A stretch of 64,000 nucleotides of DNA from Escherichia coli (GTDB lineage Bacteria; Pseudomonadota; Gammaproteobacteria; Enterobacterales; Enterobacteriaceae), in assembly GCF_044324875.1 (NCBI RefSeq), contig NZ_CP172185.1; one strand, written 5' to 3'. The position numbers were made by a program, and so were the translations under genes. Positions 3,662-32,304 of the stretch are shown one piece after another. Within the stretch, counting starts at the first letter, position 1, and every line of letters begins with the position of its first letter. The notes below the pieces were generated by a model that worked only from the letters and a program-made list of their open reading frames with translations, had not been told where the DNA came from and did no database searches.

Positions 3662-3706
3662 GAGGGGCTGTATTACCTTTATAAAGGCTTTACAGCCTCT
3701 GTTTTA
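3662..3706 (+). terminator. Hairpin with embedded perfect palindrome CCTTTATAAAGG, followed by GTTTTAT
   Basis: GAGGGGCTGTA...TACAGCCTCT 10-bp stem with palindromic loop, in the 214-bp gap between G-like and I-like genes. Confidence 0.4.
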
Positions 3707-3833
3707 TAACTGCCTCCGGTTCACCACATTGCTTTCCCTGTCCTTCTCCCCTGATGTTTTCTAAAGCAGATTAAAATCGCCGGGCCCGCATTTCTCACAA
3801 ACTGTCTCCGACAACATAACGCGGGACAGCAAA

Positions 3834-4949
3834 ATGTCAGCCATTCACATTTTTAAAGCCGGTACTCATACCGATATGCACGGCAAAAAACTGCCGTTCA
3901 CGCCAGACGATCTTGCCGCCTGCGTGAAAGCCTATGACCCGTCCGTCCATGAAGCACCACTCGTGATTGGTCATCCCAGAACGGAAGACCCGGCGTGGGG
4001 CTGGGTGAAAGCCCTGTCGCTCAGCGGCGTCGATCTGATGGCAGAGCCTGCCCAGCTGGACCCGCAGTTTGCTGAGATGGTCACCGACGGACGATTCAAA
4101 AAAGTGTCTGCCTCTTTCTACCTCCCGGATTCACCGTCCAATCCGAAGCCCGGCGTGCTCTACCTGCGCCATGTGGGCTTTCTTGGGGCACAGCCACCTT
4201 CCGTCAAAGGACTGAAACAGGTGTCCTTCAGTGAGCAGGAAGAAGGTGTGGTGGAGTTCGCCGACTGGCAGGCCATCACGAATGCCTCACTGTGGGGAAA
4301 GCTGCGCGATTTTCTGATCGCCCGCTTCAGTCTGGACGAAGCAGAAAAAGTTCTGCCGGAATGGCAGCTCAACAGTCTGCGCGAAGAGGCGTACCGCGAC
4401 ACACCGTCGCAGGATGCAGCAGGTGCGCAATTCAGTGAGACAGGCCAGGTGCCGTCTTCCGCAAGTAACGAGGAATCATCGATGACAAAAGAAGAGATTG
4501 AAGCCCTTCAGGCGGAGAACCGCCGCCTGAAGCAGCAGGCTGCTGATCGCGATGCGCGTGATGCACAGGTCAGACAGGAGCAACTGCATAAGGACAATGT
4601 GGCCTTTGCAGAAAAACTGGTCGCAGAGGGCCGTCTGGCTCCCCGCGCCTCCTCCGTGGTGGTTGCCCTGCTGGATTCCGTCGCCGGTGGCGACAAGCCG
4701 GTGGAGTTTGCTGAGGGGGAAAGCCGCACACCGCTGGCCACCGCCTTCCGTTCGCTGCTCTCCGACGGGGAGCCGGTGATGAACTTCGCCGAACAGGCCA
4801 CGAAGGAGCGTGTCGGCGACACGGTGAAAGTGGATGTGACGGAGTTTGCAGAAGCCGACCCTGACCGTCTGGCACTGCACCAGAAGGCTGTGGAACTGTC
4901 GAAAAAAGAAGGCATCAGCTATGAGGCTGCTGTCACACGCTGCCTGTAA
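3834..4949 (+). CDS. Head protease / scaffolding protein (Mu I-like)
   Basis: 371 aa, immediately upstream of major capsid gene; charged coiled-coil-like C-terminal half typical of scaffold. Confidence 0.7.
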   Translation: MSAIHIFKAGTHTDMHGKKLPFTPDDLAACVKAYDPSVHEAPLVIGHPRTEDPAWGWVKALSLSGVDLMAEPAQLDPQFAEMVTDGRFKKVSASFYLPDSPSNPKPGVLYLRHVGFLGAQPPSVKGLKQVSFSEQEEGVVEFADWQAITNASLWGKLRDFLIARFSLDEAEKVLPEWQLNSLREEAYRDTPSQDAAGAQFSETGQVPSSASNEESSMTKEEIEALQAENRRLKQQAADRDARDAQVRQEQLHKDNVAFAEKLVAEGRLAPRASSVVVALLDSVAGGDKPVEFAEGESRTPLATAFRSLLSDGEPVMNFAEQATKERVGDTVKVDVTEFAEADPDRLALHQKAVELSKKEGISYEAAVTRCL

Positions 4950-4958
4950 GGAGAAAGC

Positions 4959-5912
4959 ATGTCTGATTACTTAAAAAATAAACGCGTTGTTGATCCTGTT
5001 ATGACCAGCATCGCGCGTGGCTACAGGAATGCAGCCTTCATCGGAGAACATATATTTCCGGTTGTGTATACGGACAGAGAAGCGGTAACGGTCCCCGTTT
5101 TCGGGAGATCAGCGTTTGTGGAAGTTGATACCGTCCGTGCTGTGGGGGCAGACAGTAATGTTCTGATCAGGGAAAAGAGCAGTACGCTGGATCTGGTGTT
5201 GCATGAGCACGATCTTGCTGCACCTGTGGACTACCGTGAACAGACGGAGTCAATGTTCAACGAAGAGGCCAAGGCAATCCGGCGGGTGACAAATGGCATT
5301 CATCTTCGCCGTGAGCTTATTGCTGCCCGTCTTGCGCAGGACAAAAAAGTGTACCCGGCATCTTCGGTAAAGACGATGACGTCTGTTGAACGCTGGGAAG
5401 GAGGCCATGGTGATCCTGTTGAGGTCATTGAGGGAGGCATTGAAGCTGTGCGAAGTAAGATCGGGGTCAGACCCAATCTGATGGTCATGGGAGCCAGTGT
5501 GATGCCCCTGCTGAGATATCATCCAGCCATCACCACTGCTCTGGGACTTAATGAGAGAAAACGGATCACCCCGCAAATCCTCAGGGAGCTTTTTGGTCTG
5601 GACAAGGTCATTGTGGGTGAGCCTGTTTCCATGGCATCCATGACTGATGCAGGCAACCGGAACAAATATCCGGTGGACATCTGGGGAGATAATCTCATGC
5701 TCTTCTATGTCACTCCACCGCGAGAAGGTGCCGAAAGTGCCGACGAAAATGAACCATCGTTCGGGTATACCCTGCGACGTAAGGGGATGCCGGTGGCAGA
5801 TAAATACGATGGAGTGGGCGGAAAGGTGAAGTACTGCCGTTATACCGACATCTATAAGGTGGCGGTCGTGGGCGGGGATGCCGGTTATCTCGTTACAAAT
5901 ATAGTGAAGTAA
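4959..5912 (+). CDS. Major capsid protein (Mu T-like)
   Basis: 317 aa, strong RBS TAAGGAG, position after protease/scaffold. Confidence 0.8.
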   Translation: MSDYLKNKRVVDPVMTSIARGYRNAAFIGEHIFPVVYTDREAVTVPVFGRSAFVEVDTVRAVGADSNVLIREKSSTLDLVLHEHDLAAPVDYREQTESMFNEEAKAIRRVTNGIHLRRELIAARLAQDKKVYPASSVKTMTSVERWEGGHGDPVEVIEGGIEAVRSKIGVRPNLMVMGASVMPLLRYHPAITTALGLNERKRITPQILRELFGLDKVIVGEPVSMASMTDAGNRNKYPVDIWGDNLMLFYVTPPREGAESADENEPSFGYTLRRKGMPVADKYDGVGGKVKYCRYTDIYKVAVVGGDAGYLVTNIVK

Positions 5913-8838: not shown

Positions 8839-9359
8839 TGTCAAAGATTGAGATAAACCGCATCACGAATGCCAACATCTATCTGGATGGTACTAACCTG
8901 CTGGGACGGGCTGAGGAAGTTAAACTCCCCGATGTCTCCATGATTATGCAGGAACACAAGGCGCTGGGGATGGTGGGTAAGGTGGAACTCCCGGCTGGTT
9001 TTGACAAACTGGAAGGCGAAATCAAATGGAACAGCTTTTACCGCGATGCGATGCTGTCTGCCGCGAACCCGTACAGGTCGCTGGCACTGCAGTGTCGTTC
9101 CAGCGTCCAGCGCTACAGCTCGCAGGGGCTGATTGACGAAATCCCGCTGGTCACCTTCCTGACGATTATGTTCAAGAAGAACCCGCTGGGGACGTTCAAA
9201 CAGCACGAGAACGCCGAGTTCTCCAGTAGCTTCACATGCACGTATATCAGACAGGTACTGGATGGTGAAGAGCTGCTGCAACTGGACTATCTGGCCAACA
9301 TCTTCCGGGTCGGCGGTGTTGATCAACTGACTGACTACCGTATCAATATCGGGGGCTGA
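8838..9359 (+). CDS. Tail tube protein
   Basis: 173 aa, ATGA overlap with sheath. Confidence 0.85.
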   Translation: MSKIEINRITNANIYLDGTNLLGRAEEVKLPDVSMIMQEHKALGMVGKVELPAGFDKLEGEIKWNSFYRDAMLSAANPYRSLALQCRSSVQRYSSQGLIDEIPLVTFLTIMFKKNPLGTFKQHENAEFSSSFTCTYIRQVLDGEELLQLDYLANIFRVGGVDQLTDYRINIGG

Positions 9360-9361
9360 CG

Positions 9362-9643
9362 GTGAGTGTTGAACTGACGGATAAAGGAGGACGATGTGCG
9401 GCACTGGGCATGTCAAATGGTACGTGGTTTACCCTCCTTGATATTCCGGGGGTGGAAACCCTTTTTAATACCCGTAAAACCAATGACCCGATTGACTGCA
9501 CACGTTCAAAGGCCCGCAGACTGGCGGATTTGATTGAAGCATGGGAGCCTCCCGACCACTGGTTCTCCGGCACCGGCAAATCTGAGGGAAAGACGCTTCT
9601 CATCGCTTTCCTGCGTAACTGCAAGGGGTTTCGCACTTGCTGA
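9362..9643 (+). CDS. Hypothetical protein, possible moron between tube and chaperone genes (coding status uncertain)
   Basis: 93-aa ORF from GTG 9362 (or 77 aa from ATG 9410); no family recognised; followed by terminator-like hairpin. Confidence 0.3.
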   Translation: MSVELTDKGGRCAALGMSNGTWFTLLDIPGVETLFNTRKTNDPIDCTRSKARRLADLIEAWEPPDHWFSGTGKSEGKTLLIAFLRNCKGFRTC

Positions 9644-9649
9644 CATCAC

Positions 9650-9675
9650 AGGGGCTCCGGCCCCTTCTTCTTAAT
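9650..9675 (+). terminator. Rho-independent terminator-like hairpin
   Basis: AGGGGC-TCCG-GCCCCT stem-loop followed by TCTTCTT. Confidence 0.5.
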
Positions 9676-9740
9676 CTCCTTTAATATCCGTCACGCGCTT
9701 CTCCCGACATACTGCCCTGAACTTACACAGGAGCACAATC

Positions 9741-10076
9741 ATGTCACAGACCCCATCCGATACTTTTAAATTGTCTTATCCCTTCACCACTGCTGCAGGC
9801 ACCAGAATTGAGCTGGTTGAACTGAAACGCCTGACGGTAAAAGACCTGAAGCAGGTGCGCAAAATCAGCAAAAACCCGGCAGACTGGGACGAACCGCTGA
9901 TTGCCCGCAGTACTGGTCTTCTCCCGGAAGATCTCGACAATATGGATCTGGCTGATTACCTGCAGTTACAGAAACGATTTCAGCTCATCACGGGGATGGG
10001 TGAGAGCGACAAAGGCGCTGACGCAGGCGCAGGGGCTGCTGGCGAGATGGTTCCGGTTTCAGCCGGGGGAGATTGA
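9741..10076 (+). CDS. Tail assembly chaperone (P2 gpE / lambda G analogue)
   Basis: 111 aa between tube and tape measure genes; RBS AGGAG before ATG. Confidence 0.65.
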   Translation: MSQTPSDTFKLSYPFTTAAGTRIELVELKRLTVKDLKQVRKISKNPADWDEPLIARSTGLLPEDLDNMDLADYLQLQKRFQLITGMGESDKGADAGAGAAGEMVPVSAGGD

Positions 10077-10158
10077 TGCCCTCGATACTGACGATCTGGA
10101 GATGTGGCTGGAGCAGGCTGAAGAGCAAATAAAAAGCGAGTACGGCGACAAATCATAG
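9901..10158 (+). other. Overlapping open frame (+1 relative to chaperone); candidate programmed-frameshift extension
   Basis: Frame open 9901-10158 with no ATG; G5 run at 10062-10070 just before the chaperone stop. Confidence 0.4.
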
Positions 10159-10233: not shown

Positions 10234-13185
10234 ATGTCGGGACAGTTTTCAGTCGGCGTTGTTATCGGCGGGATGATTGGCAGCACATTCCGTTCTGCAA
10301 TGAGCGGTACCCGCCGTGCGCTTGATTCCCTGAGCGATACCTCACGCCGCCTGCAGGAACGTCAGAACGCTTTAACCCGTGCAACAGAACGTTATGGTCA
10401 ACTGGGCTCTTCCCGGATGCAGCATCTCAACAGCGAGCTGCTGCGGGTAAGCCGCACCATGGAGCAAATTGAGCGCCAGCAGCGCCGTCTGTCAGCGGCA
10501 TCAGCCACCAGTGATGCGCTGAAAGCTAACCGCATGGCGCTGTATGGTCAGGGGATTGAAGCGTATGGCATGGCACAGACTGTTTATCATACGGTTTCCC
10601 CTGCCGTTCAGCAGTCCATGTCTTTTCAGGACAAAATGATTGATATGTCGATCACCGCAAAATATGACAATAAAACGCGGGATGCACTTGCCGGACAGAT
10701 AAAAGGCTGGGCGCAAAAATACAATCAGTATCAGGATGAACTGCAGGAGGCGGTGGGTTCGCTCATCAGCGACAATATTGATAACTTGTCAGATATCGGT
10801 TTTCTGATGCCGGATATTGCCCGCGCGGCAACGGCAACACGCACGTCATCTCAGGACTGGGCAAAAGTGGCCGCAGTCTGGCAAAACTCCCTGAAAGGTG
10901 CGGCCAGAGATTTTAGTGCCGTCCAGAATATTATGGCTTATGCCGGTGACCAGGGGTCATTTGAAATCCCGGATCAGGTCAAGTGGATGCAGTCCCTGGC
11001 CCCAATGATGGCGGGTATTGCCAGTGGAAAAGAGGCTGTTGCTGAAATCGGGGCCAGTCTCCAGATAGCAAAAATCGGTGCGGGCTCCACCGACGAAGCA
11101 GCCAATAATTTTAAAAACTTTCTTACCAAAATTTTTGCCCGCGATACTCAGAAACAGTTTGCTGATCTGGGTATTGATTTGCAGGGTTCTGTTGCGAGTT
11201 ATAAGGCTGCGGGGATCTCTCCGATTGAAGGGATGTTGAGTGTTATAGAACGTTACCTCAATGCCAAAAGCCCCGAAGCGCTGGCCGGCTTCAAATCCGC
11301 CATGAAAATAAAGAATGATACGGCAAGAGATGAGGCACTTCAGGCTCTGGCGAAAAACTTTGGTCTGGGCGATATGTTCGCGGATATGCAGGTCATGGCA
11401 TTTATCCGCCCGATGCTGGCCAACATGGACAGATATCGCGAGATCCGTGCCGGTGCTCTCAGGGCTGCGGATAACGATTTGCTTGCCAGTGCTTACGATC
11501 AGCGGCTGAAATCTCCCCTTGAAGCCACTAAAGCGCTTATGGTCAGCAGTCGCGATCTGGCTATTACGCTGGGCGATCAGCTCGCCCCCTCTTTTATTTC
11601 TCTGACTCAGGAGCTGATCCCACTCATTCAGGGGGCAAAACACTGGGTGGCGACTCACCCGCAATTTGTCAGTGGGGCTTTTAAGCTCATCAGTGCGCTC
11701 CTTGCGATTAAGATAGCGACTGTTGGTCTCAAACTGGGGCTGAATCTCCTTATTTCCCCCTTTGTGAACGTCTGGAAAACTGCTGTTTTACTCCGGACCA
11801 ACTGGCATCGACTGACTACCGCACTAGGAGAAGGTGGCAAATTACGCTGGCTTGTCACTGGATTTAGCCGACTGACCAGCGGAGGACTGAAACTCAGCAA
11901 AGTTCTGGCGGGCAGCCTCGTTCGCGGTTTTATGAGCGCTGCACGTGCCGTTCTCTGGATTGGGCGAGCGCTGATGATGAATCCCATCGGTCTCGTTATC
12001 ACCGCTGTCGCGGCAGCAGCTTACCTTATCTACCGCAACTGGGGGACAGTCAGTGGCTGGTTTAAACAGCGCTGGGCTGACATTCAGGAAGCCTTTAACG
12101 GCGGTATCGCGGGAACTGGTAAGCTGCTGATTAACTGGTCGCCGGCAGGGCTGCTCTATAAAGCCTTTGCGGCTGCGCTGAAATATTTCGGCGTTGCTCT
12201 GCCGGCAAAGTTCACCGACTTCGGTGGCCATCTTGTCGACGGTCTGATTAACGGTATCAAAAACAAATGGGGGTCGCTCAAATCCAGTGTAACCGGAATG
12301 GGTGACAGCATCAGTAGCTGGTTTAAACAGTGCTGGTCTGACATTCAGGAGGCCTTTAACGGCGGTATCGCGGGAACTGGTAAGCTGCTGATTAACTGGT
12401 CGCCGGCAGGTCTGCTCTATAAAGCCTTTGCAGCTGCGCTGAAATATCTTGGTGTTGATCTGCCGGCAAAGTTCACCGACTTCGGTGGCCATCTTGTCGA
12501 CGGTCTGATTAACGGTATCAAAAACAAATGGGAGTCGCTCAAATCCAGTGTAACCGGAATGGGTGACAGCATCAGTGGCTGGTTCAGTGAAAAGCTGGGT
12601 ATTCATTCGCCGAGCCGCGTGTTTATGGGCTTTGGTGACAATATCGCGCAGGGGGCCGCCATTGGCCTGCAGCGGAGCACTCCGATTGCAGCTCTGGCCG
12701 GGCAGCGAATGGCCAGTGAACTGCTCCCCAGAATGCCCGTGAGCATTCAGGGGCCAGAAATACGGGATAACACTTCAGGTGTTCGCTTCAGTATGCCGTT
12801 GCCCGATATCAACGGGTTTATGTCGTCTGCTAAAAATGCGATCGGATCCGTAATCAATAGTTTGTCTTCCATGCCCGCTATTCCGATCTCCACCCGGGCA
12901 TCGACTTTACCAGGTCAACGTCTGGCAAATGAGATGACACCGGATGTTCCCCGTATCCCCTCGCCTGAAATCCTGGCTGCCGGATATTCAGGCCGTGGTG
13001 CAGCTGCAACCGGCGGTGGAACGTCTGGTGGTATCCAGGTCAGCTTTAATCCTCAGTTTTTCCTCAATGGCAGGGAAACCACAGCGCCTGCAGGACTGAC
13101 TGGTGCCCTGAATATGAGTCTGCATGAGCTGGAAAAAATGCTGGAGCGTCTGCTGGCTCAGAAACAACGTAAGGAGTACCGCTGA
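10234..13185 (+). CDS. Tail tape measure protein
   Basis: 983 aa, N-terminal coiled-coil-like region, hydrophobic core segments, position between chaperone and baseplate genes. Confidence 0.9.
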   Translation: MSGQFSVGVVIGGMIGSTFRSAMSGTRRALDSLSDTSRRLQERQNALTRATERYGQLGSSRMQHLNSELLRVSRTMEQIERQQRRLSAASATSDALKANRMALYGQGIEAYGMAQTVYHTVSPAVQQSMSFQDKMIDMSITAKYDNKTRDALAGQIKGWAQKYNQYQDELQEAVGSLISDNIDNLSDIGFLMPDIARAATATRTSSQDWAKVAAVWQNSLKGAARDFSAVQNIMAYAGDQGSFEIPDQVKWMQSLAPMMAGIASGKEAVAEIGASLQIAKIGAGSTDEAANNFKNFLTKIFARDTQKQFADLGIDLQGSVASYKAAGISPIEGMLSVIERYLNAKSPEALAGFKSAMKIKNDTARDEALQALAKNFGLGDMFADMQVMAFIRPMLANMDRYREIRAGALRAADNDLLASAYDQRLKSPLEATKALMVSSRDLAITLGDQLAPSFISLTQELIPLIQGAKHWVATHPQFVSGAFKLISALLAIKIATVGLKLGLNLLISPFVNVWKTAVLLRTNWHRLTTALGEGGKLRWLVTGFSRLTSGGLKLSKVLAGSLVRGFMSAARAVLWIGRALMMNPIGLVITAVAAAAYLIYRNWGTVSGWFKQRWADIQEAFNGGIAGTGKLLINWSPAGLLYKAFAAALKYFGVALPAKFTDFGGHLVDGLINGIKNKWGSLKSSVTGMGDSISSWFKQCWSDIQEAFNGGIAGTGKLLINWSPAGLLYKAFAAALKYLGVDLPAKFTDFGGHLVDGLINGIKNKWESLKSSVTGMGDSISGWFSEKLGIHSPSRVFMGFGDNIAQGAAIGLQRSTPIAALAGQRMASELLPRMPVSIQGPEIRDNTSGVRFSMPLPDINGFMSSAKNAIGSVINSLSSMPAIPISTRASTLPGQRLANEMTPDVPRIPSPEILAAGYSGRGAAATGGGTSGGIQVSFNPQFFLNGRETTAPAGLTGALNMSLHELEKMLERLLAQKQRKEYR
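12058..12582 (+). repeat. Direct tandem duplication, 2 x 261 bp (87 aa), inside tape measure gene
   Basis: Copies at about 12058-12318 and 12319-12579 differ at about 11 positions. Confidence 0.9.
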
Positions 13186-14281: not shown

Positions 14282-15423
14282 ACAGCACTGCGCAAGTCAC
14301 TTCAGCGTTAACCAGCGTCAGCGATGTGCTGACACCGGTGTTCACTCTGTGGTATCTGCAGAAAAACATCACCTCTGATATCGCGCCTTATGTCACCCGT
14401 GTGACCTGGAGCGATAACATCAAAAATGAGTCCGATACCATTGAGGTGGAGCTGGACGACACCGATGGCCGCTGGCTGGATAAGTGGTATCCGGGCAAGG
14501 GTGACACGCTGACGCTGAAAATGGGCTATCAGGGCGAGAAGCTGCTGTCCTGCGGTACGTTCTCTATAGACGAGATCGAAGTGAGTTCGCCCGCTTCCGT
14601 TGTTTCTATCCGTGGGGTGGCCACCTCGGTTAACAGTGCTCTGCGGACTAAAACCAGTCGTGGTTTTGAGAACACCACGCTGGCAGCTGTTGCGGGGCGG
14701 ATTGCCAGAAAGCACCGACTGAAACTGGTGGGCAGCATTGAGTCCATCAGAATCGACCGGGTGACCCAGTATGCTGAAACCGACGTGGGTTTTCTGCGCC
14801 GGCTGGCCAGCGAGTATGGTTATGCAGTGAAAGTGGTCAGTGACCAGCTGATTTTTTCTCATCTGGCCACACTGCGCAGTCAGGAGCCGGTCAGGCAGTT
14901 AAAACCGCAGGATGTGGCCCGCTTTTCCCTGCGTGACACCATCAACCGGGTCTATAAATCTGCAAAGGTAAAACACCAGAAAAGCAGCAGTAAAAAACTG
15001 ATCGTCTACGAAGCTGATGGTGGTACCCGTGAAAGCGACAAAAAGCTCAAAGGTGGTAAGGTTACCAGCGCTGACTCACTTAAAGTTAACAGCCGCGTCA
15101 GCGACCCGGACAGTGCCCGGATTAAAGCGGATTCAGCACTGGCCAGACATAACGAATACCAGCAGAACGGCTCCCTGACGCTGACGGGAACACCTCAACT
15201 GACAGCAGGCAACAAAATTGAACTGGTGGGTTTTGGGCAGTTATCCGGGCCATGGCTCATAACCACTGCCCGCCATGCGTTTGACCGTAACAGCGGCTAC
15301 ACCACAGAGCTGGAAGTGGCACGGGGGCCAGTCACAAGAGGGAAAAAACAAAAAACTCAGAAACTCACGGTTTATCACCCGGATGGCAGTACATCGACGG
15401 TGATTAAGGAGAAGAAAAAATGA
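14269..15423 (+). CDS. Baseplate hub / tail protein (P2 gpD-like, Mu P-like)
   Basis: 384 aa, position between X-like and spike genes. Confidence 0.75.
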   Translation: MAEINSTAQVTSALTSVSDVLTPVFTLWYLQKNITSDIAPYVTRVTWSDNIKNESDTIEVELDDTDGRWLDKWYPGKGDTLTLKMGYQGEKLLSCGTFSIDEIEVSSPASVVSIRGVATSVNSALRTKTSRGFENTTLAAVAGRIARKHRLKLVGSIESIRIDRVTQYAETDVGFLRRLASEYGYAVKVVSDQLIFSHLATLRSQEPVRQLKPQDVARFSLRDTINRVYKSAKVKHQKSSSKKLIVYEADGGTRESDKKLKGGKVTSADSLKVNSRVSDPDSARIKADSALARHNEYQQNGSLTLTGTPQLTAGNKIELVGFGQLSGPWLITTARHAFDRNSGYTTELEVARGPVTRGKKQKTQKLTVYHPDGSTSTVIKEKKK

Positions 15424-16016
15424 CTGGTGTCACTCGTCAGGTCGGTACGGTCAGTGCCGTTGATGCCGACAGGGTTCAGGCCCGCGTTCGTCTGCCTGAA
15501 TGCGATAACCTGCGCACAAACTGGCTTAACGTGCTGCAGCGCAATACCCAGGATAACAAAGATTACTGGCTCCCTGACGTGGGGGAGCAGGTTGAGGTGC
15601 TGCTCGATGCCAACGGCGAGGATGGTGTTATTCTGGGCGCGGTGTATTCAGACGTCGATAAACCACCGTTCAGTGACAAAAATATCCGGGGAACCCGGTT
15701 TGCTGATGGTGCAGAGTACAGCTACAACCGGAAGACGCACACTCTGACCATCCGGGGCGGCATTGAGCATATTGTCATTGAGTGTGGTGCTGATGTGGTA
15801 TTGAAAACACAGAAAGCCACGATTGACGCACCGGAAACCGAACTTACCGGAGATCTGCGTGTCAGGGGAAAGCTGATTTACGAAGGAGGCATGGCGGGTT
15901 CTGGTGGTAAAGGTGTTACCGCGACCATCCATGGCAATATCGAGATTAAAGGGAATGCCCATGCCACGGGCAGTATGCTGTCTGATGGCGAAAACTCCAG
16001 CCACCACTCCCACTGA
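15420..16016 (+). CDS. Baseplate spike (gpV-like)
   Basis: 198 aa, ATGA overlap, Gly-rich C-terminus. Confidence 0.75.
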   Translation: MTGVTRQVGTVSAVDADRVQARVRLPECDNLRTNWLNVLQRNTQDNKDYWLPDVGEQVEVLLDANGEDGVILGAVYSDVDKPPFSDKNIRGTRFADGAEYSYNRKTHTLTIRGGIEHIVIECGADVVLKTQKATIDAPETELTGDLRVRGKLIYEGGMAGSGGKGVTATIHGNIEIKGNAHATGSMLSDGENSSHHSH

Positions 16017-16070
16017 GCTTCTTAAACGCCTTTAATATCAGCGTTCCCGCACGGGGGCAATACTGCCCCC

Positions 16071-16418
16071 ATGAAAACGACCTCAGTATTCTGGCAACCA
16101 GCCCTGCAGGCTCCCGGCGAAATTGTCCGGGGGCTGGATGATATCCGGCAGGCGATTCAAATTATCCTGCGGACTCCCCGCGGCAGCGACCCGCATCGCC
16201 CGGAGTTCGGCAGCAATCTGCATCTTTATATCGACTGGCCTGTAGACCGGGCCATTCCGCATGTGGTGCGCGAATCCGTCGATGCCATCCGGCGCTGGGA
16301 GCCCCGCTGCCAGCTTATGTCAGTTAAACCCGCCGTCGACGGCGAACATCTTACGCTCCGGGTGAGCTGGAAAGGCTCAGACGGACAGACCCGGACTCAG
16401 GAGCTGCTATGGCGCTGA
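16071..16418 (+). CDS. Baseplate wedge protein (GPW/gp25-like)
   Basis: 115 aa with WEPR motif; immediately before J-like gene. Confidence 0.75.
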   Translation: MKTTSVFWQPALQAPGEIVRGLDDIRQAIQIILRTPRGSDPHRPEFGSNLHLYIDWPVDRAIPHVVRESVDAIRRWEPRCQLMSVKPAVDGEHLTLRVSWKGSDGQTRTQELLWR

Positions 16419-17512
16419 CAGAACCCGATTTTATTGAACGCGATGCCGACAAAATCACGGCAGAAATGATTGCGAAGTATGAAGCGGATACCGGCAAAAC
16501 GCTGTACCCGGCACAGGCAGAACGTCTGCTGATTGATCTGTGGGCCTATCGCGAAATGCTGGTCAGGGTTGCGGTACAGGAGGCAGCAAAGCAGAATCTG
16601 GTCGCCTTTGCCCGTGAGCCGATGATTGATTACCTCGGTGAACTGGTCGGTGTATACCGTCTTGCCGCGCAGCCTGCCACCACCACGCTCCAGTTCTCCG
16701 TAGATGAGGCACTGGCCATTGATGTGCTGATCCCGGCAGGCACCCGCGTCAGCGCTTCCGACAGCGTTATTTTTGCCACCGATACAGATGTGGTACTGAA
16801 GCCCGGATTGCTGCTGGTCAATGTCACGTCCACCTGTACCGAACCCGGTACCGCTGGTAACGGCTGGCAACCTGCGCAGGTCAGTCAGTTACTCGATGAG
16901 ATTGATAACGTCGACCTGCTGGTGAGCAATCTGACGGCCAGTTCCGGCGGTTCAGAACAGGAAGACGATGACAGGCTCCGGGAGCGTATCAGGCTGGCCC
17001 CGGAGTCATTCACCAATGCCGGAAGCCGTGGCGCATACCGCTTTCATGCCATGCAGGCCCATCCCAACATTGTCGATGTTGCTGTGCTTTCCCCGGTTCC
17101 CGGGACCGTAGATCTGTATCCGCTGCTCAGTACCGGTCTGCCGGACGGCGGTGTTCTCACGCTGGTAGAGAGTTTCTGCTCTGATGAGAAAGTCAGGCCA
17201 CTCACTGATACAGTGCGGGCTAAAACACCAGTGAAGGTGGATTACACCATTGAAGCCAGGATTACGATCTATCGTGATCAGGATGCCAGGTCTGTAAAAG
17301 ATGCCGCTAACAGCGCCATACAGAACTGGGTGGCATCACGTGCCGCCACGCTGGGGCGTGATATTGTCCCCAGCCAGATTATCAGTGCATTGTCCGTTTC
17401 CGGGGTGTACCAGGTTGAACTGGTGACACCGGCACTGCGGGTGGTGGCAGAAAACGAATGGGCAAACTGTACGGCAATCACTCTTAACATGAGTGGAGTG
17501 TCTGATGACTGA
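16409..17512 (+). CDS. Baseplate J-like protein
   Basis: 367 aa, position and size. Confidence 0.8.
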   Translation: MALTEPDFIERDADKITAEMIAKYEADTGKTLYPAQAERLLIDLWAYREMLVRVAVQEAAKQNLVAFAREPMIDYLGELVGVYRLAAQPATTTLQFSVDEALAIDVLIPAGTRVSASDSVIFATDTDVVLKPGLLLVNVTSTCTEPGTAGNGWQPAQVSQLLDEIDNVDLLVSNLTASSGGSEQEDDDRLRERIRLAPESFTNAGSRGAYRFHAMQAHPNIVDVAVLSPVPGTVDLYPLLSTGLPDGGVLTLVESFCSDEKVRPLTDTVRAKTPVKVDYTIEARITIYRDQDARSVKDAANSAIQNWVASRAATLGRDIVPSQIISALSVSGVYQVELVTPALRVVAENEWANCTAITLNMSGVSDD

Positions 17513-18083
17513 GCCATTACAACTCCCGCCACCGCTTGAGGGTGATATCAGTCTCAGGACGCTGGGAAGACTGGCAGGACGGCTGGATAACATCGACCTG
17601 AGCGTACTGATGGTCTTTCTCGTCGATATCGTCGACAGTTCCGCGCTGCCATGGCTGGGCGAGCAGTTCTCACTGTCTGGCGATGGCTGGGAGCTGGCGG
17701 AATCGGACGATGTTCGCCGCATGCTTATAAAAGCAGCCATCGAACTGCACCGGTATAAAGGGACGCCGTGGTCAATCCGGGAAGTTATCCGCCGTTTTGG
17801 CTTTGGTGAAGTGGATCTGATTGAAGGCACAGGTCGTCTCAGTTACGACGGCAATCGCAGCTATAACGGACTGTTTGTTCATGGAGATGCAGCCGCCTGG
17901 GCAGTTTATCGCGTTATTCTGAAACAGCCCATTACTAACGATCAGGCCGCGATGCTGCGTCAGACGCTGGCTGCATTTGCACCGGCCCGCTGCCATCTGG
18001 CCAGCCTGGAGTATCAGTCTGTGGCCATTCGCTATAACAATACCGCCATCCATGATGGCAGTTATAACCACGGGAGCAGTTGA
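17505..18083 (+). CDS. Baseplate/tail protein (P2 gpI-like)
   Basis: ATG at 17505 overlapping J stop; 192 aa, directly before fibre gene. Confidence 0.7.
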   Translation: MTEPLQLPPPLEGDISLRTLGRLAGRLDNIDLSVLMVFLVDIVDSSALPWLGEQFSLSGDGWELAESDDVRRMLIKAAIELHRYKGTPWSIREVIRRFGFGEVDLIEGTGRLSYDGNRSYNGLFVHGDAAAWAVYRVILKQPITNDQAAMLRQTLAAFAPARCHLASLEYQSVAIRYNNTAIHDGSYNHGSS

Positions 18084-32111: not shown

Positions 32112-32304
32112 ACTTACAACTCCTGAAATCAGTTAAGACATTCTGTTCAGCACAATAGCAGGTGGCAAACGCCCTTACCAGTGAAGGGGTAAGAATGGCT
32201 ATTTTTTCACTGGAGAATTAATAAATCCTCGCTACAATAGACTGAATTTCCCCTGCTTCTTCTTTTTGCTGCCCATTCAGGCGGCTTTTTAGTCTCTCAT
32301 ATAA

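Follow-up and report, generated by a model that had tools for sequence, protein, structure and literature searches.

A predicted Mor/C-type late promoter with an inverted repeat around its −10 hexamer, 5′ of the baseplate wedge gene of a BcepMu-like prophage

The spike–wedge gap and its features

Positions 1 to about 20000 of the window (the whole 64,000-nucleotide stretch of Escherichia coli DNA analysed here) form the late region, head and tail, of a BcepMu-like transposable prophage, 95–99% identical in this region to Escherichia phage PhiKM of the genus Bcepmuvirus. The tail module is P2-like in gene order (sheath, tube, chaperone, tape measure, U, X, D, V, W, J, I, H), and its genes resembling P2 W–J–I–H constitute the baseplate wedge and tail-fibre operon. 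A 54-nt gap separates the spike gene from the wedge gene and is the site of a hairpin and of a motif shared with a second intergenic gap. The stop codon of the spike gene lies directly 5′ of the promoter element described below, and the wedge gene has no alternative in-frame start. Of 5426 complete E. coli genomes, 616 have this spike–wedge junction. The features of the gap and of its flanking genes are as follows (P_W denotes the wedge-gene promoter; signed positions take the A of the wedge ATG as +1).

15420–16016, plus strand: baseplate spike gene (P2 gpV-like; PHROG baseplate assembly protein, annotated gpV/Mup45 in phage PhiKM)
16018–16039, plus strand: predicted Mor/C-type activator dyad element of P_W, CTTCTTAAACGCCTTTAATATC (top matrix score of the window; blocks conserved in 66 lineages)
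16040–16052, plus strand: promoter spacer, free to vary in sequence
16053–16070, plus strand: inverted repeat (hairpin) GGGGGCA-ATAC-TGCCCCC around the −10 hexamer
16059–16064, plus strand: predicted −10 hexamer AATACT (−12 to −7)
16071, plus strand: predicted transcription start, on the A of the wedge ATG (leaderless mRNA)
16071–16418, plus strand: baseplate wedge gene (GPW/gp25 family, P2 gpW-like; phrog_43, E = 3.9e-34; RefSeq name GPW/gp25 family protein)

The initial annotation of this DNA had described a 6-bp hairpin immediately before the wedge ATG. The hairpin is real, but the version at 16054–16069 ends one base short: the stem has 7 bp (GGGGGCA at 16053–16059 and TGCCCCC at 16064–16070, enclosing the loop ATAC at 16060–16063) and its last base adjoins the ATG at 16071. 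The minimum-energy RNA fold of 16017–16100 (84 nt) contains this hairpin (z = −2.48 compared with 200 shuffles), and the 24 nt 5′ of the wedge ATG fold with an energy of −13.9 kcal/mol. A search of Rfam with 15500–16600 on both strands returned no match at E ≤ 1.

Two further observations concern the neighbouring tail genes. The tail-fibre gene (18080–19798) contains 2.6 tandem copies of a 300-bp unit, with 98% identity, at 18314–19097, and the fibre gene of PhiKM is shorter at the matching place. The open reading frames 9741–10076 and 9901–10158, 5′ of the tape-measure gene, overlap and resemble the frameshifted tail chaperone pair gp42/gp43 annotated in BcepMu.

A family of late-promoter elements

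The motifs GCCTTTAATATCAG at 16028–16041 and TCCTTTAATATCCG at 9677–9690, which the initial annotation had paired, are present as claimed, and their match extends further: the two gaps share 18 specified bases, CTTCTTAA-N4-CTTTAATATC, found exactly at 9667–9688 and 16018–16039. These are the two occurrences in the window, for a chance expectation of 0.02 even with three mismatches allowed. The 10-mer CTTTAATATC by itself is not above chance in the window (seven matches at one mismatch or fewer versus 3.1 expected). We scored both strands of the window with a weight matrix covering −53 to −31 of the wedge-gene sites. The three top positions are 16018 (25.2 bits), 9667 (24.8 bits) and 3757 (22.5 bits), and no score exceeds 17 bits in the rest of the 64 kb. 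The same three positions come first with a matrix derived solely from lineages below 55% identity to the window, for which the best score in 100 shuffled windows has a mean of 13.9 bits. Position 21143 (17 bits, both strands) was dismissed, being inside the coding sequence of a serine recombinase (VWKLDRLGR motif). In the complete PhiKM genome a fourth site is found at 32244, just 5′ of the lysis operon. Each of the four is intergenic, lies on the coding strand and precedes one late operon (lysis, head, tail or baseplate), and the top matrix matches fall nowhere else in the phage. The sister elements within the window, and a palindrome that lies near one of them, are listed here (P_E denotes the tail-operon promoter).

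3666–3697, plus strand: palindrome CCTTTATAAAGG (3676–3687) within GGCTGTA...TACAGCC, followed by a T-run; a separate conserved element
3757–3779, plus strand: dyad element of the head-operon late promoter (counterpart of Mu P_I), conserved in relatives with a 73% identical head protease
3798–3834, plus strand: head promoter, with −10 hexamer CAAACT at 3798–3803, predicted start near 3810 and ATG at 3834
9650–9675, plus strand: terminator-like hairpin AGGGGCTCCGGCCCCT and T-run (stem 9650–9665), 3′ of the gene at 9362–9643
9667–9689, plus strand: dyad element of the tail-operon late promoter P_E, 5′ of the tail chaperone and tape-measure genes
9708–9741, plus strand: P_E −10 hexamer CATACT at 9708–9713, predicted start near 9720, leader of about 21 nt, Shine–Dalgarno sequence AGGAG at 9731–9735 and ATG at 9741

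The motif at 9677–9690 does follow a hairpin, as had been stated, in the form of the terminator-like stem and its T-run. The T-run overlaps (within 9650–9689) the left arm, CTTCTTAA, of the tail-operon element, so that terminator and activator site share bases at the tail promoter.

We gathered the wedge gene and its upstream DNA from 75 viral contigs and 80 species-representative genomes (Enterobacterales, Burkholderiales, Pseudomonas and Neisseriales), and aligned them without gaps, anchored on the wedge start codon only, in 66 clusters below 80% identity. Two blocks are conserved, TYTTTAAAC at −52 to −44 and WTTAAWA.C at −40 to −32, and together they form a dyad with TTAA cores. In the window the TTAA half-sites of P_W lie at −49 to −46 and −39 to −36, with flanking symmetry from −51 to −34, and the dyad centre, at 16028/16029, corresponds to −42.5, a value that holds, here as in the 66 clusters, only if +1 is the A of the wedge ATG, the assumed start. 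The spacer between the dyad and the −10 hexamer is uninformative over the clusters, and its 13 nt differ freely among close relatives, with both flanks fixed. Within the −10 hexamer, A−11 is present in 56 of the 66 lineages and T−7 likewise in 56. Hexamers of this kind stand at the same dyad offset in the sister promoters: GATGCT (lysis), CAAACT (head), CATACT (tail) and AATACT (baseplate). P_W has no −35 box, the position reading TATCAG. Moreover, in most lineages a site equivalent to P_E is found 6–7 kb 5′ of the wedge gene, its −10 hexamer at the same offset and followed by a leader of 20–45 nt with a canonical Shine–Dalgarno sequence. In several Pseudomonas relatives (L075, L077, L128, L140, L145, L154 and others) an intrinsic terminator (for example GCCTGCGTCAGCAGGC followed by TTTT) occupies −34 to −13 before the wedge ATG and thus falls within the promoter, with the activator site on one side of it and the −10 box on the other.

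As for the activator, a 129-aa protein of PhiKM matches the Pfam family Mor (PF08765, E = 1.5e-43) and gp01 of BcepMu is annotated as a Mor/C-type activator. The gene lies outside the window, and we infer its presence here from near-identical phages. Late promoters of Mu have a −10 box without a −35 box and a 16-bp imperfect dyad centred at −43.5, to which a dimer of C binds (PMC2582627). The comparison with C-dependent late promoters that the initial annotation had called for is thus favourable: the phage encodes a Mor-family activator, the −10 hexamer lacks a −35 partner, the dyad is centred near −43.5 and copies of it precede late operons. Likewise, the suggestion that the motif marks late-promoter or activator sites is supported: the dyad belongs to a promoter class that precedes each of the four late operons (lysis, head, tail, baseplate), and over 60 lineages conserve it. 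Judged on these sequence comparisons, the shared motif is very probably the activator site of late promoters in the BcepMu-like family. The 18-bp dyad at about −42.5, with its TTAA-N6-TTAA core, would stand in for a −35 box and be bound by a dimer of the Mor-family activator; polymerase carrying sigma-70 would use AATACT (16059–16064) as its −10 box; and the other copies would drive the tail operon (9667), the head operon (3757) and, in the complete phage, the lysis operon.

A third related palindrome had been noted at 3675–3686. It lies one base further on, at 3676–3687, and does not belong to the motif family: the family matrix gives it less than 10 bits, and it was rejected as a copy of the promoter element, the true third site being at 3757–3779, about 80 nt downstream. 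The pattern CTTTAWWAW-N21-WWACTGCC matches at 3677, 9679 and 16030, but it was built from those same sites; 3677 was rejected as a site since it scores below 10 bits, has no left half-site and has a proper site near it at 3757. The palindrome is nevertheless conserved. The 16-mer TTTATAAAGGCTTTAC is identical in BcepMu (L162, 18728–18760), where the outer stem differs and is still complementary (CCCGTAAAG/CTTTACGGG), and the group with a 73% identical head protease keeps the palindrome without the outer stem. It lies in the gap between the virion morphogenesis and head protease genes; a strong gyrase cut site is annotated in that gap in Mu, and by this analogy the palindrome may serve as a gyrase site, or else as a terminator.

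Morons also insert where the spike gene meets the promoter element. In Salmonella Infantis this junction holds the O-antigen modification genes gtrABC (L004, 5640–8930), and the gtr moron is flanked by two copies of a sequence of about 35 bp, GGCCCGGTAAGCGCAGAAGCGCCACCGGGCAAA (5700–5735 and 8850–8885); in E. coli FEA3 it holds a gene with a PD-(D/E)XK nuclease domain (L161, 1490–2460), and further insertions are seen in L032, L049, L057 and L086. In every moron-bearing relative the dyad, the hairpin and the ATG stay attached to the wedge gene. A promoter of the wedge gene's own, as predicted here, would explain why the gap tolerates such morons (O-antigen gtr, nuclease).

The wedge start and the hairpin around the −10 hexamer

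The tail, head and lysis copies of the promoter are followed by ordinary leaders with Shine–Dalgarno sequences. At P_W the ATG itself occupies the predicted start position of the sister promoters, 7 nt past T−7. All 66 lineages have a pyrimidine at −1 and an ATG start, and this invariant pyrimidine followed by A at +1 fits the usual start-site preference. A Shine–Dalgarno core between −16 and −5 is found in 0 of the 66 lineages for the wedge gene, compared with 41 of 43 for the next gene, J, and the mean anti-Shine–Dalgarno duplex energy is −3.3 kcal/mol versus −7.7 kcal/mol for J. An ATG starts J in 37 of 43 cases, GTG and TTG also being used. In addition, the first 30 nt of the wedge coding region are nearly unstructured (−0.44 kcal/mol, compared with −4.17 kcal/mol for internal windows). 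The absence of a Shine–Dalgarno sequence, an AUG start and an accessible 5′ coding end are what is expected of leaderless mRNAs, which require AUG and already lose activity with one extra 5′ base (PMC8459731). We consider it likely that the wedge-gene mRNA is leaderless and starts on the A of the ATG, which would explain the missing ribosome-binding site. In the Pectobacterium relatives 8 nt, not 6, separate the −10 hexamer from the ATG, so a leader of 1–2 nt is possible there. The one set of transcription-start data located for a lysogen of this family, the tables for Burkholderia cenocepacia J2315 (which carries BcepMu), contains no entry at the wedge gene; the prophage was uninduced in that data set, which makes this lack uninformative.

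The initial annotation had read the hairpin differently, as hiding a ribosome-binding site. The wedge mRNA would then be a conventional leadered one and the hairpin a translational operator sequestering its ribosome-binding site. Such an operator would account for a stable hairpin (−13.9 kcal/mol) that ends on the base before the ATG, and in the enteric lineage the 5′ arm is indeed a G-run. However, there is no Shine–Dalgarno core in any of the 66 lineages, the G-run stands 13 nt away from the ATG and is missing from the Burkholderia and Pseudomonas relatives, and the ATG lies outside the stem. Moreover, the conserved positions of the loop are those of the −10 box (A−11 and T−7), and their distance from the dyad equals that in the sister promoters with leaders. 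We regard a translational operator as very improbable. The region 16018–16073 is instead probably a Mor/C-type late promoter, P_W, giving a leaderless wedge mRNA; activator binding, the start point and leaderless translation are all predictions. RNA would start on the A of the wedge ATG (16071), and the wedge and tail-fibre operon would open with a leaderless message.

We may then wonder why a hairpin surrounds the −10 hexamer. Native arms pair with a mean energy of −7.0 kcal/mol, compared with −4.6 kcal/mol for arm-swapped chimeras, and 0 of 2000 permutations is as low. More than ten unrelated arm pairs stay complementary across lineages, among them GGGGGCA/TGCCCCC, GGAC/GTCC, GGGGA/TCCCC, GCGGC/GCCGC, GCCG/CGGC, CTGGC/GCCAG and GCACA/TGTGC, with stems of 4–8 bp and loops of 3–9 nt. 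This variety of arms, loops and stems points to a nucleic acid structure rather than a protein site. The regions of P_W fold as RNA at −9.0 kcal/mol (z = −1.35), compared with −3.3 kcal/mol (z = +0.24) for the leadered P_E regions, and P_E of the window has no hairpin around its −10 hexamer. No clear hairpin is seen in the relatives from Lonsdalea, Arsenophonus and Chromobacterium. The arrangement recurs at a second gene: in BcepMu and several other Mu-like phages the head protease gene is preceded by the dyad, a −10 hexamer in a hairpin loop and an ATG that lacks a Shine–Dalgarno sequence and is flush with the stem. Those relatives whose head protease gene has a Shine–Dalgarno sequence have no hairpin and may use GTG. 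Absent from leadered tail promoters and present at these head-protease starts, the hairpin thus goes with the leaderless arrangement. The covariation and the arm-swap comparison indicate that pairing within the inverted repeat is itself selected and that the repeat is not a mere by-product of GC-rich flanks.

In BcepMu the head protease gp32 (L162, 18808–18864) has its annotated start at 18850; the promoter model places a −10 hexamer GATGAT at 18849–18854 and the start ATG at 18862. On this model gp32 may be leaderless, with its true start 12 nt downstream of the annotated one. Comparable ATG starts, abutted by a hairpin and lacking a Shine–Dalgarno sequence, are seen in L201, L207, L208 and L209.

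The pairing could be selected in DNA, as the operator of a dimeric repressor over the −10 box or as a structure affecting promoter melting or start-site precision. In most lineages the centre of the repeat is within about one base of that of the −10 hexamer, even in Pectobacterium with its shifted −10, and certain Pseudomonas repeats, almost perfectly palindromic with a loop of 1–3 nt, fold poorly as RNA. An orthologous protein site would, however, hardly show wholly different arm sequences between lineages at spacings of 1–9 nt. Internal mismatches are mostly G–T on the plus strand, or G–U in terms of the mRNA-sense strand (nine, versus two A–C; a small excess, counted over unique-sequence cells that are not independent events), and the 5′ arm lies outside the normal sigma-70 open-complex bubble, which is established knowledge. 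A role at the DNA level therefore seems quite unlikely to us.

At the RNA level, a transcript begun at +1 cannot include the hairpin, so any such role concerns RNA arriving from upstream. A terminator scan reports no convincing terminator between 9741 and 16071, and read-through RNA should therefore exist. The hairpin could serve this upstream transcript as a terminator, attenuator or 3′-end stabilizer, squeezed into the promoter because the spike stop codon touches the activator site. Several facts are consistent with this: about half of the Pseudomonas relatives have a canonical GC stem and T-run inside the promoter spacer, centred at −25.5; these have weaker −10 hairpins (−2.8 compared with −5.6 kcal/mol; one-sided Mann–Whitney p = 0.02, n = 8 and 14); and the leadered P_E has a separate terminator just upstream. 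Yet the enteric hairpin is followed by AUGAAAAC, without a U-tract, and so cannot be a canonical intrinsic terminator; its GC-rich stem runs into ATGAAAACG and the terminator scan does not report it. Furthermore, the head promoter of BcepMu, which has ample room and a separate terminator-like stem, still keeps its −10 hairpin, and the energies of spacer and −10 hairpins are uncorrelated over all lineages (r = −0.05). Given this lack of correlation, and an effect that is weak and confined to Pseudomonas, we rejected the idea that the two hairpins substitute for each other. A terminator or stabilizer is on balance rather unlikely.

Alternatively, the hairpin may be a processing site, at which the polycistronic RNA of the upstream tail operon is cut just 5′ of the AUG to yield a leaderless mRNA like the primary transcript. 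This would suit the strong hairpins, in all of which the 3′ arm stops at −1 or −2 while the length of the stem, the size of the loop and the 5′ end vary; it would also suit the association of the hairpin with ATG starts lacking a Shine–Dalgarno sequence in two unrelated genes, the preference of G–U pairs for the mRNA-sense strand and the read-through RNA expected from upstream. The fixed 3′ end could nevertheless result from the arm fitting between the −10 hexamer and the coding sequence, and an uncut hairpin flush against the AUG is, from general knowledge, expected to hinder ribosome binding. Processing is in our estimation unlikely.

Our preferred reading, tentative and at somewhat less than even chances, is insulation. 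RNA entering from the spike gene, or from an inserted moron, would fold the 18 nt 5′ of an AUG that lacks a Shine–Dalgarno sequence, and the wedge operon would then be expressed only from transcripts begun at P_W. Should this hold, a hairpin coupling translation to transcript origin would be a new regulatory use of leaderless initiation.

A more general design can be imagined for internal late promoters of Mu-like phages, with a −10 hexamer in the loop of a hairpin that abuts an ATG lacking a Shine–Dalgarno sequence, one sequence having two uses. In DNA it would be the −10 hexamer and discriminator of a leaderless promoter; in read-through RNA the hairpin would block the internal AUG, or be cut to free it. 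The place where a transcript began would then decide whether the operon is translated. Such a design would be undescribed, and we offer it as a speculative possibility.

Comparison with known systems

In the literature searched, which did not extend to the original BcepMu paper, neither the late promoters of the BcepMu family nor a leaderless wedge gene is described; an earlier description in that paper is possible. The present analysis provides a testable map of late control: it gives a consensus for the operator, places four promoters and predicts that the baseplate and tail-fibre operon starts without a leader. The prophage family concerned is widespread in Proteobacteria, and about one in nine complete E. 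coli genomes has a member of it. It also bears on annotation, since gene callers and annotators may misplace the starts of genes without a Shine–Dalgarno sequence, as for gp32 of BcepMu, which appears 12 nt too long.

Hairpins just 5′ of a start codon are known from T4 genes 25 and 38, whose split ribosome-binding sites use such a hairpin to carry a distant Shine–Dalgarno sequence near the AUG; the product of gene 25 is the homologous baseplate wedge protein. A split site of this type was rejected for the wedge gene, no Shine–Dalgarno sequence being found upstream of or within its hairpin. A leaderless start at an activator-dependent promoter has its precedent in lambda PRM, whose transcript starts at the AUG of cI; transcripts begun at a promoter further upstream reach cI as well. 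PRM differs from P_W in its activator and geometry, and in having no conserved hairpin enclosing the −10 hexamer.

A closer parallel is PV of phage P2, an activator-dependent late promoter for which the reference record puts the start of V-operon transcription on the first base of the V coding sequence. Gene V of P2 opens the baseplate and tail-fibre operon in a P2-type tail module, as the wedge gene does here, and the sequences before the ATG are similar (GCAATCTCACATGC-ATG in P2 and GCAATACTGCCCCC-ATG in the window). The activators differ, however: that of P2 is the zinc-finger protein Ogr, with a binding site further upstream (annotated 10239–10266), whereas a Mor-family protein is expected here. 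The leaderless gene is V in P2 but W here, and, unlike P_W, PV does not lie within an operon and lacks a strong hairpin at its −10 hexamer.

The late promoters of Mu share with those of this phage a recognizable −10 hexamer, the lack of a −35 box and a Mor-family activator encoded by the phage. Their dyad of about 16 bp is centred at −43.5, compared with about 18 bp centred at about −42.5 here, and both overlap the −35 region; each phage has four copies of the late promoter, including one for the lysis genes and one for the head protease. The operator described here (TTAA-N6-TTAA core) is nevertheless unrelated in sequence to that of Mu, and Mu has no promoter between the spike and wedge genes. 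Finally, PI of Mu has a leader and a Shine–Dalgarno sequence, whereas P_W is expected to give a leaderless transcript and has its −10 hexamer enclosed by an inverted repeat. P_W is thus predicted to be a variant of the Mor/C-type late promoter, one with a leaderless start and a selected hairpin around the −10 hexamer.
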